Positions 2,914 through 39,047 of a DNA stretch of 39,370 bases are shown here, piece after piece. The stretch comes from a virus (taxonomy: Duplodnaviria; Caudoviricetes): positions 1 through 39,370 of IMG/VR virus record IMGVR_UViG_3300027994_000011; one strand, 5' to 3'. Below the pieces are notes generated by a model. The model was given only the letters and a program-made list of their open reading frames with translations, was not told the origin of the DNA and did no database searches. Numbering within the stretch: position 1 is the first letter of the stretch; each line of letters opens with the position of its first letter. Made by a program: the position numbers and the translations under genes.

Positions 2914-3094
2914 TCAACTCCAGTCTTTTTAATTTTGCTTTCTCGACAGGGGACTTTGGGTTCAAAATATCGGGATGGTGACCTATATAGAATGCCAAAC
3001 TCGCCATTTCAGACTTGGCGTCTATTGCATCAGAATTACAAACCAGAGAACATAGCCTTTTGATTTCTTCTAAAGTTTCTTTATCAATTGTCAT
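2894..3094 (-). CDS. hypothetical phage protein
   Basis: ATGA overlap with upstream gene. Confidence 0.6.
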   Translation of the reverse strand: MTIDKETLEEIKRLCSLVCNSDAIDAKSEMASLAFYIGHHPDILNPKSPVEKAKLKRLELNDGQRN

Positions 3095-3378
3095 TCGCCT
3101 TTGTCCTTTTCAATCGGGCGGGATGCGTATTCGGAACAAATCAGGTCGTATTCCTCCTCATCCTCAACGCTGCACCATTCATCGTCAACCGGGCATAGAT
3201 AATCAATTCCACTGGCATTGCAGTAATCCGGCTTAATATTGTTATCAAACTGGAAACAATCGTAGTCTGCCAGAATATCCACCAATCTTTGACCTTCTTT
3301 TAAATCAGCGACCGGAACTATAAACGGTTTTCCCGGCACTTGCGGAATATGCCAAACCCTTAATTCTAGTTTATTCAC
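3091..3378 (-). CDS. P22 gp17-like superinfection-exclusion-related protein
   Basis: LRVWHIPQVPGKPFIVPV...LADYDCFQFDNNIKPDYCNASG closely follows the P22 gp17 signature. Confidence 0.85.
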   Translation of the reverse strand: MNKLELRVWHIPQVPGKPFIVPVADLKEGQRLVDILADYDCFQFDNNIKPDYCNASGIDYLCPVDDEWCSVEDEEEYDLICSEYASRPIEKDKGE

Positions 3379-3536
3379 TTCCCACCCTCCCCCGGTTGTA
3401 ATTTACCCTCGGTCGATTGGATAAAATCTACAACGACCCAATAAAATCTAGTTTGCGGCAAAAACAGGATTAATAACGCAGCAATTAACCATAATGAAAT
3501 CTTTATTGAAAACTTACCATTTTGAAATTCAAACAT
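3375..3536 (-). CDS. small single-TM protein
   Basis: ISLWLIAALLILFLP hydrophobic segment; coupled to neighbours. Confidence 0.5.
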   Translation of the reverse strand: MFEFQNGKFSIKISLWLIAALLILFLPQTRFYWVVVDFIQSTEGKLQPGEGGK

Positions 3537-3897
3537 TTTGTTTATCCTTTGGTTGTAATTTACCATTATGCAACCTGTCCATGGCTTCTTCAAAGGCTTC
3601 ACGCAGTGGACACCCGCCATTATAGAACCTTAGGGCAATTTCTATGCTTCCATCAGAATTAAGACTTGCTTGTGTTAGATAACCGTCATCTTCAATGTCT
3701 TTTGTGCCTGAATAATCATAAAGCTCACCATTATACGACAAATAGGTTTTGTAATGCTTATCGGTTAATTTCTCTAAAAATGTATCGCCATAAGATTTCT
3801 CATCCCCAAGCATACGCTCACACATCTGCTCGACTGTTTCATTTTCTTTGGGTTGAACCTTGACTACCTTGCCGACCCAGAATTCCATTTCAGACAT
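3529..3897 (-). CDS. hypothetical acidic phage protein, first gene of operon
   Basis: 122-aa ORF with RBS GGAG upstream. Confidence 0.75.
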   Translation of the reverse strand: MSEMEFWVGKVVKVQPKENETVEQMCERMLGDEKSYGDTFLEKLTDKHYKTYLSYNGELYDYSGTKDIEDDGYLTQASLNSDGSIEIALRFYNGGCPLREAFEEAMDRLHNGKLQPKDKQNV

Positions 3898-3975
3898 AAA
3901 AAAACTCCATAAAAGTTAGCTCGCCTTCGGGGACAAACTAACGTCTATAGAGTTTCAACTGCCCGAACAGTCAAG
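3898..3975 (-). promoter_or_regulatory. Structured 5' leader: two hairpins with complementary loops, RBS sequestered
   Basis: Loops UUCGGG and CCCGAA; long stem AAACUCUAUA..GUUAGUUUGUC/GGCGAGCUAAC..UAUGGAGUUU with G-U pairs on minus strand. Confidence 0.7.
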
Positions 3976-3979
3976 AACT

Positions 3980-4007
3980 ACAATACACCATTCCCTCACC
4001 GGGTCAA
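3980..4007 (-). promoter_or_regulatory. Putative sigma70 promoter
   Basis: TTGACC-16nt-TATTGT directly upstream of the structured leader. Confidence 0.55.
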
Positions 4008-4019
4008 GCGGGAAATGAG

Positions 4020-4586
4020 AAAAAAGTTACAGGGTGAGGTGCGGCCTACTTTCGTAGCTGTTGCCCTTGAAGGTTTTTAAACCAAACCGCAGTTCTTTCG
4101 GCAACCCTGATAACTTCCTTGTGCCAGATGTTCACCCCGATCAGGTTTTCCGTACTGGCATTCCTATCCTGCCTTATTTGTTGGGGAGGTGTCAACTAGG
4201 CAATATTCCGCTTTCCGCAAGACCCGATATACTTGATATCAATGCGGTTCGGTCAGGTCGTATTACGTTAGTAAATCCTACAAGATGACATTTTATCGAG
4301 TGCCGCTCGCCGATACCCACTATACCAGCCATGGGGAGCAATTACATCGTACAGGTCTTGTATTCTGTTCTTCGGGCAAACCCTACCCTAGAACGCCCCG
4401 GAAATTCCCTTTCGGGATAAAGAAGGCTACCAACAACTAGATTTTTGGCTTTACACCATACGGAACCTAGAAAACGCTGAGAAGCTATCGGGGAAATTAG
4501 TTGACCTTATCGGTCGGATGCACTATATATAGTGTCAAGGTACTAAATTCATCCCTCGAAGAAAGCTTCCGGCGCTTCGGGGGATT
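4020..4586 (-). ncRNA. Putative ~560-nt structured non-coding RNA of unknown family
   Basis: No credible ORF in a gene-dense genome; nested helices with G-U polarity and GAAA tetraloops (UCCC-GAAA-GGGA, CUAC-GAAA-GUAG) on minus strand; ends in a closing stem plus U-run. Confidence 0.65.
4501..4529 (+). promoter_or_regulatory. Putative sigma70 promoter for antisense sRNA
   Basis: TTGACC-17nt-TATATA; -10 lies inside the perfect palindrome CACTATATATAGTG (4521-4534). Confidence 0.6.
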
Positions 4587-4592
4587 TCTTTA
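4536..4592 (+). ncRNA. Putative ~55-nt antisense sRNA ending in an intrinsic terminator
   Basis: 11-bp stem ATCCCTCGAAG/CTTCGGGGGAT (one G-U pair, valid only on plus strand) followed by TTCTTT; promoter immediately upstream. Confidence 0.55.
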
Positions 4593-4619
4593 TCTTAATG
4601 ATAAATTTGTTTTGGTCAA
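4592..4619 (-). promoter_or_regulatory. Putative sigma70 promoter of the large ncRNA
   Basis: TTGACC-16nt-TAAGAT on minus strand just after the 4626 stop codon. Confidence 0.55.
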
Positions 4620-4625
4620 GAAAAA

Positions 4626-5069
4626 TTACGGCATCTTCTGAAAGAAGTTTCCAGAGTTTGATTCTATCTCTTTAGATATATCTAATATAATTCGGTAAAC
4701 TTTTCGACCTTCCTCAACAGAAATGATATTTGCTGTATGGTAATCGTATTTTGAGCCAAGTCGCTCTTTTATAATATTGTACAGGAATGTCCTTTTACGC
4801 TTAGCGTTGTCCCTGTTCTTCCACATAGGGTCTAATAGAGCATGAATATGCTTACGTGCATTCTTTATGGCTGGCGTGGGTATGATACCTAACGGTCTAG
4901 TTCTGTCTTTTGTTTTCCAATGGCAACCAACAAAATTATCGCATCGGTCACATATCCAAAACGGAAGTTTATATAAATCTTCCCTATGCGGGTAAATTTC
5001 CTTACCATCCGTCAATCTGGCCTTGACCTTAAAACCACAATCGCAGCACCAAATTTCTCTTACTTGCAT
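4626..5069 (-). CDS. DUF3268-family zinc-finger protein
   Basis: CCDCG..ARLTDGKEIYPHREDL...FWICDRCDNFVGCH...PLG...RKHIHALLDPMW pattern; ATG 5069. Confidence 0.8.
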   Translation of the reverse strand: MQVREIWCCDCGFKVKARLTDGKEIYPHREDLYKLPFWICDRCDNFVGCHWKTKDRTRPLGIIPTPAIKNARKHIHALLDPMWKNRDNAKRKRTFLYNIIKERLGSKYDYHTANIISVEEGRKVYRIILDISKEIESNSGNFFQKMP

Positions 5070-5197
5070 TTTTGACAAGGCTCTATAACTATTTCATTAA
5101 CAGCCTTATCTACAGGCATAATAAGCTTACCTTTGAGTTCTGAGTTACACACAGAACACACGGCCCTCGCAGGGATAGAAATATTTATATGAGCCAT
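5060..5197 (-). CDS. 45-aa CxxC...CxxC zinc-ribbon miniprotein
   Basis: Manual translation MAHINISIPARAVCSVCNSELKGKLIMPVDKAVNEIVIEPCQKCK; TAATG coupling to upstream gene. Confidence 0.65.
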   Translation of the reverse strand: MAHINISIPARAVCSVCNSELKGKLIMPVDKAVNEIVIEPCQKCK

Positions 5198-5790
5198 TAT
5201 TTCATCCTCAATTCTAAATTTCCAAATATCTTGTTCAACTCAATTAAATAACGGTCTTTTACCCACTGGTAAGCTGATTTAGTAACCGTTAAATAGTTTT
5301 CATGCTGATATCCGTATTCAGGATCATATCTCGCATCCTTAAACCATGTATTAACAACCGCTACCCCGTAAACCTTTGCTATCTTATGTTTCCATTCAGG
5401 CCAGTCTTGTGTGTCAATCGGTAGAGCGGCAGTCTCTAATGCTGCCTGACCATCGTTCCATCTCTTTTGATTGAGCCAACTTGAGGCGTGGGCAAAGGCC
5501 GCAAACTCTTCTTTATTCAGGCAATAATACCGCAGACCCTTCATTATAGTTTCGTGGTCTGTTTCCTTTAGGGCTTTAATATAAGCACGTTCGGCGGGTT
5601 CTTTTGCCACCTTAAGCGGATAGGCTGTCCAGAACTCCAAGAAAGTTGTTGGTTTGATTCTCTTAGGCTTGGCGGTGGGATTGCGGACAATATGGAGCGC
5701 GTTCTCGTAATATAGCTTACGGTCTTCTGGCGAAGTTTCTTTATTCGCCATTAATACAACTAGGTCATATACGCGCTGTTGGTCGTTCAT
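5197..5790 (-). CDS. Replication initiator/replisome-organiser-like protein with C-terminal DnaA domain I-like segment
   Basis: FLEFWTAYPLKVAKEPAERAY...HASSWLNQKRWND initiator C-terminal motif; then W..KIAKVYGVAVVNTWF...YQWVKDRYLIEL resembling DnaA_N. Confidence 0.75.
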   Translation of the reverse strand: MNDQQRVYDLVVLMANKETSPEDRKLYYENALHIVRNPTAKPKRIKPTTFLEFWTAYPLKVAKEPAERAYIKALKETDHETIMKGLRYYCLNKEEFAAFAHASSWLNQKRWNDGQAALETAALPIDTQDWPEWKHKIAKVYGVAVVNTWFKDARYDPEYGYQHENYLTVTKSAYQWVKDRYLIELNKIFGNLELRMK

Positions 5791-5796
5791 TCCTAA

Positions 5797-5868
5797 AATC
5801 TAGTACAAAATAAAATGTACCGCAAGTGAAATTTAATCCTTGACGTGAATTAAATAAAATCCTAGGTT
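5797..5868. promoter_or_regulatory. Divergent promoter pair 1
   Basis: Minus TTGCGG-17-TAGATT (5825-5797), 6 nt before ATG 5790; plus TTGACG-17-TAGGTT (5840-5868). Confidence 0.65.
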
Positions 5869-5925
5869 GGTCTGGCTAATCCAGATTCGAAACGAAAAGG
5901 AATAGCAATTTAAACAGGAGATATA

Positions 5926-6096
5926 ATGAACAACTTAGCAAAAATGCTGGCAGCATACAGACAAAAGAATGATATGAGCCAGCGCGAACTTGGTAAGTCT
6001 ATAGGGCTTCCACACTCGACAATGTGCCGAGTTGAGCAAGGCAAAGATTTTGACCTAAACACTTTTGCCAAACTTTTAGCATGGATGATAAAATGA
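5926..6096 (+). CDS. Cro/XRE-family HTH regulator (56 aa)
   Basis: Manual translation MNNLAKMLAAYRQKNDMSQRELGKSIGLPHSTMCRVEQGKDFDLNTFAKLLAWMIK; RBS AGGAG. Confidence 0.88.
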   Translation: MNNLAKMLAAYRQKNDMSQRELGKSIGLPHSTMCRVEQGKDFDLNTFAKLLAWMIK

Positions 6097-6245
6097 CAGA
6101 CATAACAGCAAGACTAAGCCTTTATGACCTGAATAGGCTTTTCATCAGAGTTACCCGCAAGAAATGGGCTCAGGGTGATTGGTCAATTCGTAAATACAAC
6201 AAAATGCAAGATAGAATTGTTAAGGCCATAAAGGAAAAATCATGA
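6093..6245 (+). CDS. 50-aa basic hypothetical protein
   Basis: ATGA overlaps at both ends. Confidence 0.6.
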   Translation: MTDITARLSLYDLNRLFIRVTRKKWAQGDWSIRKYNKMQDRIVKAIKEKS

Positions 6246-6889
6246 CAATTGAAAAAGTAATCCAAGCAATGGAAGCTGTTCAAGCCCTCCATGATAGCCA
6301 CGGTATTCAAGTTAAGGGGGGTAAGAAATACTCCCAAGTATCTCACCGCGTCGAAACATTTAGAAAAACATTCGGTTACGAATATGGTATGGAAACTGAA
6401 ATTAAGGAATTTGCTGGCGGGTTTCTTTGTAAATGCCGGATTTCCTCTAAAGAGGGACAAGTAATTGCTTCTGGTCTAGCTTTTGGTAAGGGGATTGGTA
6501 ATGAAAAGGCTCTTGAGAAAATTGAAACTACAGCTGTAGGGAGAGCGCTAGCTAATGCAGGTCTTGGCGGCGGCGAATACGCCTCACTGAATGAGATGGA
6601 AACATTTGAGGAACGTTATGAACCACCTAAAGCCGAAAGCAATGGCAAGGGAACTATGGGCAGATTAGCCGATGACCCCACCATTAAAGCAGATATGGCT
6701 TTGCTGGGCTATGACGCAGATAAAGTCTATAAAGATGCAAACGCTGAATTAGACCATGCTCAAGATTCAGAAGATCTTGCTAAATGGTCCTCTAAATGGA
6801 GTGACCAGCTTAAGGGACTACCCAAAGACAAACGGGATAGCCTAAGAGAAGACTATAAACGAATTAAAACATACTTGGAGACAAAATAA
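6242..6889 (+). CDS. Rad52/Sak-like single-strand annealing protein
   Basis: KYSQVSHRVETFR...ALEKIETTAVGRALANAGLGGGEYASLNEM motif; directly upstream of SSB. Confidence 0.75.
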   Translation: MTIEKVIQAMEAVQALHDSHGIQVKGGKKYSQVSHRVETFRKTFGYEYGMETEIKEFAGGFLCKCRISSKEGQVIASGLAFGKGIGNEKALEKIETTAVGRALANAGLGGGEYASLNEMETFEERYEPPKAESNGKGTMGRLADDPTIKADMALLGYDADKVYKDANAELDHAQDSEDLAKWSSKWSDQLKGLPKDKRDSLREDYKRIKTYLETK

Positions 6890-9805: not shown

Positions 9806-10094
9806 CTATTCCTCCACTATCGGCACGTCTTTCCAAACGTGTCCGCTGAATTGTTGTAATACGTAAGATTTGTTATCCGCTGGGTTGCGCATGATTAAGC
9901 CCTCATGGGCTGGGAGAACAGTAACTTTCCATCTCAAGTCACCTTTTTGTGGTGCGTGTTCGGTCATTTCAACCACCAGTTCATAGCCAGCAATAAAAAG
10001 TTTATGATTGTAAAGGCCATGTTCATGGCAATTCTTTCCTCAATCCAATTAAGGTGACTTGGCAGCCTCATTAGGTCGTAGCTTTCAAACAGTT

Positions 10095-10244
10095 TCATTT
10101 CTTCGCCTTTCTATTCATTAAGACAAATCTAATATGAGAAGATAAAGACCTGTCGGCGGACTTGGCCTCTAGCTCTAGTTTCTTCTTTTCTGCCTTATTA
10201 TATCGCGTTGTAGGCAAAACCGCGTCTAGTTTAATTTCATCCAT
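10095..10244 (-). CDS. Arc/MobC-like ribbon-helix-helix regulator (49 aa)
   Basis: Manual translation ...TTRYNKAEKKKLELEAKSADRSLSSHIRFVL...; RBS AGGAG; first gene after promoter. Confidence 0.7.
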   Translation of the reverse strand: MDEIKLDAVLPTTRYNKAEKKKLELEAKSADRSLSSHIRFVLMNRKAKK

Positions 10245-10266
10245 TTATTAATCTCCTATTATGGTC

Positions 10267-10339
10267 AATTTAACTTGTAAATATTTTATTGTCAACATGT
10301 AATTTATTTGTTGACACTCGTTTTACCCTGTGGCACTGT
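10267..10339. promoter_or_regulatory. Divergent promoter pair 2 with back-to-back -35 boxes
   Basis: TGTCAACA-N11-TGTTGACA (10290-10316); minus TTGACA-17-TAAATT; plus TTGACA-17-CACTGT with extended TG. Confidence 0.7.
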
Positions 10340-10361
10340 AAATTCATAGGAGCAACAAACC

Positions 10362-13848: not shown

Positions 13849-14042
13849 GCGATAAAGTAGAATTTACACAATGCGAGCCCTTAAATAAAGAAGGTTATTT
13901 GTTTTATACCCCGCCTGAGAAATCGGCCTATACGTGGGAAATAATGAATTTCGGGTACAACCCTCTAAAGAAAGACGAGCCAAACTGGTTCCGCCGCAAG
14001 ATGATGGAATTGTTCTTTGGTGGCAAGTGGGTGAAGAAATGA
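13845..14042 (+). CDS. hypothetical phage protein
   Basis: PNWFRRKMMELFFGGKW motif; coupled at both ends. Confidence 0.7.
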   Translation: MSDKVEFTQCEPLNKEGYLFYTPPEKSAYTWEIMNFGYNPLKKDEPNWFRRKMMELFFGGKWVKK

Positions 14043-14482
14043 TCCCCTATACAGAAGCAGAAGACAACCTGATTAAGCTACTACGCTCCCAAGGCGTTCC
14101 GGCAGTGGAAATTGCCCAAAGGCTCAACGTACAATTCCACAACAGGAGAACCAAGCTAAGCGTTCTCGGTCGCGCCAGAAGAATAGGATGTGCGCCTATA
14201 ACCAGAGATGAACAGGGGTTGAACGGCAAAATACAAACCCGATACCACAATGACGGGAATTACACGAAACCAGTGGCGATCCCGGTTAATACGGGCGAGG
14301 GTATTAGTATATTATCTCTTACTGAAAATACCTGTAGATACATCACGGATGACGAGAAGAGGTTATATTGCGGCTGCAAAATATACAGGCCGGATAATAT
14401 TAAAACCCGCCAGAGCTATTGCAAGAAGCACAGAGAAGCTTGCTTTCAGAAAAATAGTGGGGTAAAATTGCATTCTGTTTGA
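14039..14482 (+). CDS. gcrA: GcrA cell-cycle regulator homologue
   Basis: N-term YTEAEDNLIKLLRSQG..AVEIAQRL...TKLSVLGRARRIG and C-term ILSLTENTCRY...YCG...SYCKKH...FQ match both GcrA domains; ATG 14039. Confidence 0.88.
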   Translation: MIPYTEAEDNLIKLLRSQGVPAVEIAQRLNVQFHNRRTKLSVLGRARRIGCAPITRDEQGLNGKIQTRYHNDGNYTKPVAIPVNTGEGISILSLTENTCRYITDDEKRLYCGCKIYRPDNIKTRQSYCKKHREACFQKNSGVKLHSV

Positions 14483-37153: not shown

Positions 37154-37308
37154 CCTGCATGCACTCCAGTAATATCAATAACCTCAATCAATGCATTCGG
37201 ATAGGTAACTGAAAGGTAGGCCATGAAGCCAGCATCGGCGTGTTCTTCTGGGGTCAGTCTTAATAGGCGCACACAGTAGGGGGCGATTGTGTCGTAGTTA
37301 CATATCAT
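37150..37308 (-). CDS. small hypothetical protein
   Basis: ATG 37308 after GAGG; stop overlaps portal GTG. Confidence 0.5.
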   Translation of the reverse strand: MICNYDTIAPYCVRLLRLTPEEHADAGFMAYLSVTYPNALIEVIDITGVHAG

Positions 37309-38830
37309 AAATAGAATCCTCGCGCTCCCTGCCAAGGTTGATGGGACTATCCTGTTTCTCTTTAGGCCAAATCAATGACAAATCAGGCTCCATTAGGCGT
37401 GCAAGCGCGTCCATCATATCATCATGTTCCGACACAGGGAAGGCTTTATATTCAAACTCTACAAACTCGGAAACCAGCTCGCGCATGGTTCCTTCATAAT
37501 CTGTATAATATAGAAACTCCGGCAAGTAAATTTGTTTATTAGCAAAATAAGGAATTAGTCGGCGTATTCTGTCGTTCTTTGAAACACTCGACCCCACTTC
37601 TTCAATCTCGAACCGGTAATTCTCTGCGCCCTGCAACGTCTTGATATACTCTATATCCGCTTGCATGGAATACTTCTCATACCGCACTTGCTTTGGTTTA
37701 TACTTACGGTGCCATCTCATAACCAGTTCGGCACGTTGCTGCAAGTTCAGCCTGTCGCGAACCATGTCCAGTACATAAATATTCTTATCAGACCCAAGAC
37801 CCACAGCCCAAGCCGCCGTGTAATCATTACCTTTCTTCTTGCCGCTTGCCGGATCGAACAGGAGATAGACATTCAATCCTGTAGGTTCACGCCTTGGTGC
37901 ATACCGCAGCCATTCAGTGAGGAAGCCCTGCGTTTCATCGGCTTTAGGATTCTGAAGCATCTGCGTTGCGAATGTATATGGCCCCATATCCCGGCGCTTA
38001 TTGTTCAAGCTCTCCTGACTAAGCATCACCGCTTTCCCCTCCACGGTGCCGTCATCCGTTGCCGGGTAAATGCGCGGTATAGCAGTCTTGCGCTTCATGA
38101 TTGTGTTGTAGCTATCGTTAAAATGATAGCGCGTGCCAATGAATCGACGCTTTGTGTGTTCGGTTCCCAAGTTATAGGAGAGTTCCAGTGCTTCCGTTGT
38201 ATTGGCAATCATCTCAGGCGTGTTGACAGAGGCCCTTGTGACAACGTCATCATAAATCAATACGTCAAAATGCTTTCCAATCGGTTGACCATCGACAACA
38301 CCCCACGCCTCGACTGTTGCCTCCTTGGGGTTTCCTTCTCGCTTAACGATGATACCATCATCCTCTGACCACTTAAGAGACTGAGCTGATGGGTTTTCAT
38401 ATAGAATGTCATCAAAGGTTTCTTTCAAAACCTCATTGTTCTCAAGCTCCCGCTTAATCTGGCGCATAAATGATTTAGCGATAGGTCGAGTGTGGGAAAA
38501 TATTCCAAAAGTTAACTCACGCTCGGTAATCCTACCCTCTCCGTGTGAACAGAGAATGTCCTGAATGGTCTTGCCATATGTTATGATTGTACTCTTGCGG
38601 TGATCCCGTGCCCAAAGGTCTAGGTGATCGTCTGGGTCCGCCTGAACTTCCCTGCACCTGTCAAACAACCACGGATGATCGAAGTCCTTACGATTGAATA
38701 CATACCTGATTAGGAAATAGAGGTCAGTGCGACACAGGCTTCTTAGATACGATTTCTTTTGCTGTTCCGAGCATTCCGCCAAGCCAGCTATCAATTGAGG
38801 GTATTGATGTTGTAATAATTGCACCGCCAT
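37298..38830 (-). CDS. terL: Terminase large subunit
   Basis: ARDHRKS Walker A variant, GKHFDVLIYDD Walker B, IGTRYH, nuclease FDPA...DYTA...HDDMMDAL. Confidence 0.95.
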   Translation of the reverse strand: MAVQLLQHQYPQLIAGLAECSEQQKKSYLRSLCRTDLYFLIRYVFNRKDFDHPWLFDRCREVQADPDDHLDLWARDHRKSTIITYGKTIQDILCSHGEGRITERELTFGIFSHTRPIAKSFMRQIKRELENNEVLKETFDDILYENPSAQSLKWSEDDGIIVKREGNPKEATVEAWGVVDGQPIGKHFDVLIYDDVVTRASVNTPEMIANTTEALELSYNLGTEHTKRRFIGTRYHFNDSYNTIMKRKTAIPRIYPATDDGTVEGKAVMLSQESLNNKRRDMGPYTFATQMLQNPKADETQGFLTEWLRYAPRREPTGLNVYLLFDPASGKKKGNDYTAAWAVGLGSDKNIYVLDMVRDRLNLQQRAELVMRWHRKYKPKQVRYEKYSMQADIEYIKTLQGAENYRFEIEEVGSSVSKNDRIRRLIPYFANKQIYLPEFLYYTDYEGTMRELVSEFVEFEYKAFPVSEHDDMMDALARLMEPDLSLIWPKEKQDSPINLGREREDSIYDM

Positions 38831-39047
38831 CAGCACCTGTATGCTCTATTTGTTCTTTGGGCTTGCCCCAAGCTCTATCTAATATACTGTTAGCCGATTT
38901 TACTCTAATGTTTTCGTCCGGGCTTTTAAGAGATTGAGACAAAACAAGAATAGCTTCTTCAGCGTGTTTTCTAGCTTCTAAAACACCGCTATTTAGCTTA
39001 CTTGACTTTCCTCCCGGATTGCCTGAACTGCCCTTTACGAAAACCAT
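38724..39047 (-). CDS. terS: Terminase small subunit
   Basis: FVKGSSGNPGG, ILDRAWGKPK, EHTGADGGAI motifs; upstream of TerL. Confidence 0.88.
   Translation of the reverse strand: MVFVKGSSGNPGGKSSKLNSGVLEARKHAEEAILVLSQSLKSPDENIRVKSANSILDRAWGKPKEQIEHTGADGGAIITTSIPSIDSWLGGMLGTAKEIVSKKPVSH

Follow-up and report, generated by a model that had tools for sequence, protein, structure and literature searches.

The 728 nt gap at positions 3898-4625 of the phage genome analyzed here is a real non-coding control element. Our best reading of it, to which we give about even chances, is that it would serve as an RNA-primed, antisense-controlled replication origin that works in the manner of the ColE1 and MRB plasmid origins and has replaced an iteron origin. 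A more far-reaching version is tentative and rather doubtful, namely that a new family of primer RNAs defines the origin in a P22-like phage lineage, with a truncated initiator acting as a helicase adaptor only, and that this is a hybrid replicon belonging to neither the ColE1 nor the MRB family and probably not confined to the Gammaproteobacteria, in which the primer RNA, under antisense control, forms the R-loop.

A non-coding element in the replication region of a podovirus-type genome

The window, that is, the whole stretch of DNA that was analyzed, is the entire 39,370-bp genome of a virus from leaf litter (CheckV 100%). It is of the podovirus type, with genes for a terminase, a portal, a capsid and ejection proteins. 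A GcrA-like gene and the occurrence of relatives of the initiator in Alphaproteobacteria suggest that the host is an alphaproteobacterium; the gene for the GcrA-like cell-cycle regulator lies at 13934-14482 on the plus strand (Pfam E 1.4e-5, just below the cut-off). Leftward from a divergent control region at about 5800-6240, the initiator-like gene (5197-5790), a DUF3268 gene, the gap and the early genes follow each other.

4626 to 5078, minus strand: gene for a DUF3268 zinc-finger protein (E 6e-13), the stop codon of which adjoins the promoter of the long RNA described below

The initial annotation had called 3898-4625 the largest ORF-free gap of the genome. This is true of the internal gaps when ORFs of at least 80 aa are counted, but not at a cut-off of 60 aa, at which a mechanical 75-aa ORF on the plus strand divides the gap and the gap at 9806-10361 is larger; the stretch 1-740 at the record end, with 740 nt, also exceeds it. 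The gap at 9806-10361 (556 nt) holds the best sigma-70 site of the genome, TTGACA-17-TAAATT at 10295 on the minus strand, which faces two small minus-strand ORFs within a plus-strand block.

No frame of the region 4020-4590 has a coding signal (scores of −0.07 to −0.09), compared with scores of +0.03 to +0.14 for six of seven held-out genes; the seventh, the DUF3268 gene, scored −0.045. Small proteins in the gap were rejected because every frame scored as non-coding, and recoded stops were rejected because the genes are readable with table 11, the one code that was applied. It is highly improbable that the gap has no functional long RNA and represents just a decayed gene or the spacer separating a terminator from a promoter. 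Such a view would fit the lack of a detected homologue and the near-chance single-sequence statistics of the middle region, both described below. However, no frame carries a coding trace, and the gap brings together three of the five TTGAC-type promoters of the 39-kb genome, its two strongest terminators and its sole quadruplex motif.

Among 72 ORFs scanned against PHROGs, which were chosen from the 173 listed ORFs and one shorter ORF, no gene for a helicase, a primase, a polymerase or an integrase was found. A repressor-like HTH gene lies at 5926-6096, and its occurrence without an integrase among the 72 scanned ORFs is compatible with a plasmid-like prophage or with a lytic life. The early genes include a gene for a P22 gp17-like superinfection-exclusion protein (3091-3378, minus strand; Pfam E 1e-27). 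No tRNA or tmRNA was found in the genome with ARAGORN, and the cumulative GC skew tracks the gene direction and shows no mark at the gap element.

Of the phages whose genomes could be compared, G001 and G002 are the closest; they are syntenic with the window and have capsid proteins that are 58 and 56% identical to its capsid protein. Both encode full-length initiators, and in both the replication genes are followed by the early genes without a comparable gap. The portal and capsid proteins are 48-58% identical to those of the two phages, unlike the large terminase (37298-38836, minus strand), for which blastp gave no match to the ORFs that occupy the corresponding position in either phage. 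A terminase swap relative to these phages is likely, judging from the sequences. More similar capsid proteins, over 90% identical, belong to two relatives of about 40 kb (P0242, P0243).

Signals and folding of the predicted long RNA

The following features were located on the minus strand of the gap:

4592 to 4619, minus strand: promoter TTGACC-16-TAAGAT of the long RNA, with a predicted +1 near 4585
4020 to 4586, minus strand: predicted long RNA of about 565 nt, non-coding, an RNA II-like pre-primer candidate, with a closing helix and U6 at its end
4381 to 4409, minus strand: quadruplex-type motif G3-N7-G4-N7-G3-N2-G3, the sole canonical one in the genome
4022 to 4120, minus strand: 3' domain with the closing helix, folding weakly above shuffles (z −1.9)

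The minus-strand promoter, which had already been proposed in the initial annotation, was confirmed at 4619-4592. The genome has five TTGAC-type sites that score 9/12 or better, three of which lie inside 4007-4619; all promoter-like sites in 3400-6500 number 10, compared with 7.5 ± 3.1 in shuffled sequences. A long non-coding minus-strand transcript with its own promoter is plausible from the sequence signals, as had been claimed, but the ornate single structure that had been ascribed to it finds no support in the folding statistics.

The minus-strand fold of the whole RNA has a z of −1.45, and 9 of 100 shuffles were equally good (the plus strand of the same stretch has a z of −1.99). The number of helices of −10 kcal/mol or better equals that of shuffles (113 versus 116 ± 11 in 150 shuffles; best helix, p 0.08). 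The comparison with shuffled sequences lends no support to the claim of one discrete multi-domain RNA. Only the 5' domain at 4490-4590 folds clearly above shuffles (z −3.5) and the 3' domain does so weakly, while the z values of four middle segments range from −1.3 to +0.5. All 12 helices that had been named exist at the sequence level, but several of the middle ones do not reach p>0.5 in the full-length ensemble, i.e., UACAAGA/UCUUGUA, CCCAU/GUGGG, CGAG/CUCG and GACCUGA/UCGGGUC. Values of p>0.5 were found for the UCCC-GAAA-GGGA hairpin, for GCCU/AGGC and for three helices of the 3' domain; the closing helix has a p of 0.93-1.0.

The minus strand had also been favored on account of its G-U pairs and GNRA loops. 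Indeed, GNRA hairpins of at least 4 bp occur twice on the minus strand and not at all on the plus strand, but 40 of the 388 minus-strand windows of the genome likewise have at least two of them, and the first hairpin (4536-4593) is stronger on the plus strand (−18.9 versus −16.0 kcal/mol), where a U.G pair corresponds to C.A on the minus strand.

By analogy, the 3' domain is a candidate RNA-DNA transition zone. It offers a possible alternative or pseudoknot pairing, GUUGCC/GGCAAC, with a p of 0.03 in nested folding. Its closing strand has alternative partners elsewhere, including an 8-bp helix and a 12-bp long-range helix; the latter (4254-4243/4091-4080) was rejected (p 0.08 versus shuffles, ensemble probability 0.00). 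When the RNA's 5' end was blocked in silico, a G-run at 4138 switched its partner, and the 3' domain stayed the same, with a p of at least 0.96 for the closing helix.

The quadruplex-type motif was carried by 76 of 5,000 shuffles, and it is absent from G001, G002 and ColE1. Two perfect palindromes, of 14 nt (4521-4534) and 10 nt (4242-4233), lie in the long RNA and are possible operators or self-pairing loops. Clustered direct repeats were not found in the gap element. The GC content of the element is 0.43-0.53, and an AT-rich unwinding tract is absent save at the promoter.

Searches for relatives of the long RNA

The statement that the RNA cannot be assigned to a family was upheld, since the Rfam search yielded no match at the gathering score or at the E<=10 threshold beyond chance hits (E 3-8). 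RNase P and group I and II introns were rejected for lack of an Rfam match. The search for homologues, which had been proposed for related phages together with the original claim, covered phages, plasmids, metagenomes and genomes and revealed no relative of the long RNA. Comparison by blastn gave only chance matches in phages (E 0.6-9) and no match in plasmids, and motif scans of viral contigs gave 13, 4 and 58 loci, all of which were chance on inspection. Scans with the flanking proteins did not uncover a homologue, and neither did the DNA at 80 initiator loci (whole records, 0 of 50). In 401 genomes of Alphaproteobacteria, 49 had matches of 18-38 nt with E 0.002-0.1, which is chance level, and there were no matches in 400 genomes of one order. 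Altogether, about 850 further genomes and records were searched at the DNA level; most of the homologue scans required exact words, so that a diverged family could escape.

A metagenome scan with the mechanical ORF 4061-4288 was blank and missed even the contig of the window itself (L245) in that collection. A scan with a motif of the initiator found 117 loci, with a useful yield of L245, which is identical to the window, and L249. The latter contig encodes a full-length initiator, and the approximately 270 nt of DNA downstream of it are coding.

These results bear on the view that the gap encodes a large ornate RNA that stands by itself, similar in kind to GOLLD and ROOL. It would be the product of an accessory gene that has a promoter and a U-rich end of its own, and it might oligomerize via palindromic loops. 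We consider this view unlikely. Several features would suit it: the closing helix followed by U6, the two minus-strand GNRA hairpins, the 14-nt and 10-nt palindromes and several possible long-range pairings. The absence from G001 and G002 would also befit an accessory gene. Pseudoknotted RNAs, moreover, can score weakly in nested folding. The length of about 565 nt is within the size range of ROOL and OLE RNAs as given in the accessible part of PMC12990946. However, there is no Rfam match even at E<=10, the helix content equals that of shuffles, and the genome is devoid of tRNA genes, although ROOL and GOLLD are often located near tRNAs according to the accessible parts of PMC12286853 and PMC12990946. 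An ornate RNA would account neither for the antisense unit nor for the headless initiator described below; the plus-strand hairpin would then merely insulate the RNA or damp its level.

An antisense unit on the plus strand

The earlier reading missed a plus-strand antisense unit opposite the 5' end of the long RNA, and it did not set apart a second promoter and leader (4007-3898). The features of the antisense unit are as follows:

4501 to 4529, plus strand: antisense promoter TTGACC-17-TATATA, 9/12, the −10 element lacking the final T; overlaps two short palindromes
4536 to 4593, plus strand: predicted antisense RNA of about 57 nt, RNA I-like; its sequence is the complement of the long RNA's 5' end (fold z −2.6)
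4551 to 4593, plus strand: terminator-like hairpin (4551-4585), followed by a U-rich tail that coincides with the +1 of the long RNA
4445 to 4473, plus strand: weaker alternative antisense promoter TTGGCT-17-TAGAAA, 8/12, which would yield an RNA of about 113 nt

The hairpin ending at 4585 (−18.3 kcal/mol) ranks first among the 18 terminator-like sites of the plus strand and second among the 40 of both strands, and the predicted start of the antisense RNA lies 49 nt ahead of the U-rich tail. Genome-wide, 3 of 27 promoter-like sites (at least 9/12) have a terminator 40-150 nt downstream, with thresholds that were chosen after the site had been seen, and two of these three pairs are in the gap, i.e., the antisense unit and the 4007 leader. 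Sites with a score of 8/12, such as the alternative promoter, occur 1.17 times per 600 nt, which is chance level. The 18 nt at 4534-4551, beside the antisense promoter, are 72% alike to 5827-5844 in the divergent control region, possibly reflecting a shared operator or promoter element.

The perfect palindromes overlapping the plus-strand promoter, together with the weak folding of the middle region and the headless initiator, might also point to an origin or control region that acts at the level of DNA, at which palindromes and promoters bind proteins, transcription just opens the DNA and the shape of the RNA is irrelevant. We regard this as very unlikely: the element has neither clustered direct repeats nor an AT-rich tract other than that at the promoter, and a strong antisense terminator would be superfluous.

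The separate downstream leader

Two further features lie between the long RNA and the early genes:

3980 to 4007, minus strand: second promoter TTGACC-16-TATTGT, the start of a separate downstream unit
3898 to 3975, minus strand: strongly folded leader or attenuator (z −6.3), within which the ribosome site belonging to the 3897 gene is buried

With −20.0 kcal/mol, the leader ranks first among the terminator-like sites of the genome. Run X3 contains a 112-nt copy of it with two differences and another downstream flank; this copy comprises the leader only, not the long RNA. For the long RNA, no RNA data set containing it was listed, which does not bear on its expression. One of the changes turns a U.G into a C-G pair and the other breaks a U-A pair. 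From this comparison, 3898-4007 may be a mobile attenuator cassette. The leader has no Rfam match, and its core has no exact match in viral contigs.

The second promoter is pertinent to another explanation, which we judge to be quite unlikely, that the element is an antisense-controlled switch. The long RNA would then be an attenuator or antiterminator leader, and the short RNA would decide on read-through into the leftward early genes, for the control of lysis versus lysogeny or of superinfection. CI of P4 and C4 of P1 are antisense-controlled switches to which the element can be likened, and it shares their sense/antisense anatomy. The alternative partners of the 3' closing strand (8-bp and 12-bp helices) and the vicinity of the repressor-like HTH gene (5926-6096) and of the superinfection-exclusion gene (3091-3378) would also be in line with a switch. 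However, the downstream genes are served by their own promoter and leader (4007-3898), and the explanation is weakened because this promoter is separate. Furthermore, the closing helix keeps its p of at least 0.96 with a blocked 5' end, a self-search detected no exact complement of at least 12 nt between RNA and leader, and a switch would leave the phage without a recognizable origin.

A truncated replication initiator

The initiator encoded upstream of the gap lacks parts that are present in its full-length relatives, and we refer to it as headless:

5197 to 5790, minus strand: gene for a 197-aa initiator with a helical N-terminus, an initiator middle domain and a DnaA-domain-I-like tail, without DUF1376 and without a repeat linker

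The protein matches the inner part of phage initiators alone (PHROG 270, profile positions 178-253 of 383). Six relatives of 182-205 aa (P0253-P0258), encoded on contigs of 2.7-39.8 kb, align along its full length, and as judged by these alignments the short form is a family, characterized by an N-terminal helical hairpin, a DnaA_N tail and the lack of a DUF1376 head. Four of the five short relatives tested have a match to Pfam DnaA_N. Among 48,161 chains, the two top structural matches of the tail are DnaA domain I (Z 8.0, rmsd 2.4, 66 aligned; and Z 7.7), values that on their own are moderate only, with a Foldseek E of 0.08 for the tail. In the ESM Atlas, only unnamed or DnaA_N viral clusters were retrieved for the initiator. 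None of 801 genome searches revealed a short initiator, the matches all being full-length or partial.

The N-terminal DUF1376 domain is present in G001 (E 2e-19), G002 (E 1e-15) and L249 (E 8e-6), and it is absent throughout the window. Clustered repeats ahead of the middle domain were found in the genes of all three of these full-length relatives and of all 11 prophage initiators examined (14 were fetched); these are raw counts. The gene of the 197-aa initiator has no 8-mer repeat cluster and only one 7-mer pair. In lambda O, the head is the origin-binding domain, and the repeats within the gene are the origin. By analogy with lambda O, the loss of both head and repeats would mean that the phage needs another origin. 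The replication role that had been suggested as a possibility for the RNA thus gains support from the antisense cassette and from the headless initiator.

A proposed mechanism of RNA-primed initiation

If the element is an RNA-primed, antisense-controlled origin, host sigma-70 polymerase would transcribe it leftwards from about 4585, and the long RNA would stay hybridized to its template as an R-loop, possibly aided by the G-rich tract, which would lie on the RNA and on the displaced strand. The mitochondrial heavy-strand origin is a known case of a G-quadruplex that stabilizes an R-loop. Either RNase H or termination at the U-run would leave a 3' end near 4075-4020, and this end would prime the leading strand leftwards, which is the direction of most of the phage genes. 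The middle domain of the headless initiator would bind the displaced strand, and its DnaA-domain-I-like tail would bring the host helicase DnaB; binding of DnaB by DnaA domain I is described in the accessible part of PMC6127211. The RNA would supply the site specificity that is given by head and iterons in the relatives, a link between initiator and RNA that is drawn from one genome. The antisense RNA would alter the folding of the nascent RNA and thereby set the copy number, so that priming is damped as copies rise. Copy-number control would suit a plasmid-like prophage state.

What sets this case apart is the apparent loss of a protein-recognized origin. If the reading is true, a tailed phage would have this element as its sole recognizable origin, together with an initiator that lost its origin-binding head, which would illustrate how origin specificity can shift from protein to RNA. 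The element would also point to an antisense RNA that controls the copy number of a plasmid-like prophage, and it would offer a compact replicon of about 1.9 kb for Alphaproteobacteria. Should the gap instead encode a free-standing ornate RNA, it would add another uncatalogued large phage RNA.

Comparison with known systems

ColE1 has an RNA II of about 550 nt and an antisense RNA I of about 100 nt, and ColE1-like origins are placed in gammaproteobacterial orders (PMC8683028, accessible part). Priming involves a persistent RNA-DNA hybrid, processing by RNase H and extension by Pol I (PMC12966454, accessible part). The element in the window is likewise ORF-free over about 550-570 nt behind a sigma-70-type promoter, as far as sequence signals alone can tell, and it too has an inner antisense promoter and an antisense terminator with a U-tail at the start of the long RNA. 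RNA II has a similar folding profile, with its maximum at the 5' end and values close to zero in the middle. However, RNA II has the better overall fold (z −3.8 versus −1.45) and a much better one at the 3' end, and it has G6 runs at +288 and +535, whereas the element reaches no more than G4, at +188 and +449. The quadruplex motif is not common to both, being absent from ColE1, and the predicted antisense RNA of the element is only about 57 nt long with one hairpin, compared with two or three in RNA I. In addition, the element sits in a P22-like phage with a probable alphaproteobacterial host and has a truncated initiator upstream.

Homology with ColE1 was tested in five ways and was not established. 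In the reference NC_001371, the Rfam RNA I match lies at 645-749, and we take RNA II to start next to it at 641, a position assigned by us from the sequence. A pairwise alignment to RNA II is colinear from both 5' ends (98.5 versus 73.7 ± 8.9, p 0.015) and convincing by eye; it was not counted as evidence of homology, the genome-wide controls being negative. An nhmmer profile of eight origins, which were enterobacterial only and at least 70% alike, had no match on the minus-strand element, and the element was outside the top 10 of 1,934 windows in three scorings. With an anchored profile, three settings led to p values of 0.07, 0.008 and 0.43. A covariance model built on the 3' domain of ColE1 listed 16 matches at E<=10, none of which was the element, so that the block that is conserved ahead of the A-run in ColE1 origins had no match in it with this 3' model. 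The Rfam RNAI model (RF00106) also had no match at E<=10, while the positive control ColE1 scored 73.8 bits. We therefore propose that the element works like a ColE1 origin and do not claim membership in that group. Searches of the openly accessible literature listed no paper that, by its title or abstract beginning, deals with a ColE1-like origin in a phage.

The lambdoid phage initiators of the O type and with DUF1376 (YdaU), the genes of which contain iterons, have a homologous middle domain and, in some cases, a homologous DnaA_N tail; the protein of the window differs from them in lacking the DUF1376 head and the repeat linker. The element resembles GOLLD (RF02032) and ROOL (RF03087) in its large size, its location in a phage, its GNRA loops and its possible long-range pairings, but it differs in having no Rfam match and no tRNA neighbors and in the presence of an antisense unit.

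The accessible part of PMC3035462 names only two plasmid families as starting replication with RNA. MRB (pB1067), as described there, comprises about 500 bp without an ORF and without iterons and includes a terminator-type inverted repeat; its RNA I of 68 nt is fully complementary to a longer RNA II, which measures at least 465 nt and for which the 3' end has been mapped. It is reported there to be unrelated to ColE1 in sequence and restricted to the Vibrionaceae (PMC3035462). MRB was compared by description, and a blastn search of the whole plasmid collection gave no match. In MRB, RNA I has two stem-loops rather than one hairpin, RNA II starts 37 nt beyond RNA I, and there is no Rep protein, whereas the window encodes a truncated initiator. 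Common to MRB and the element are the lack of an ORF, the lack of iterons and, as predicted for the element, the opposition of a long and a short RNA.
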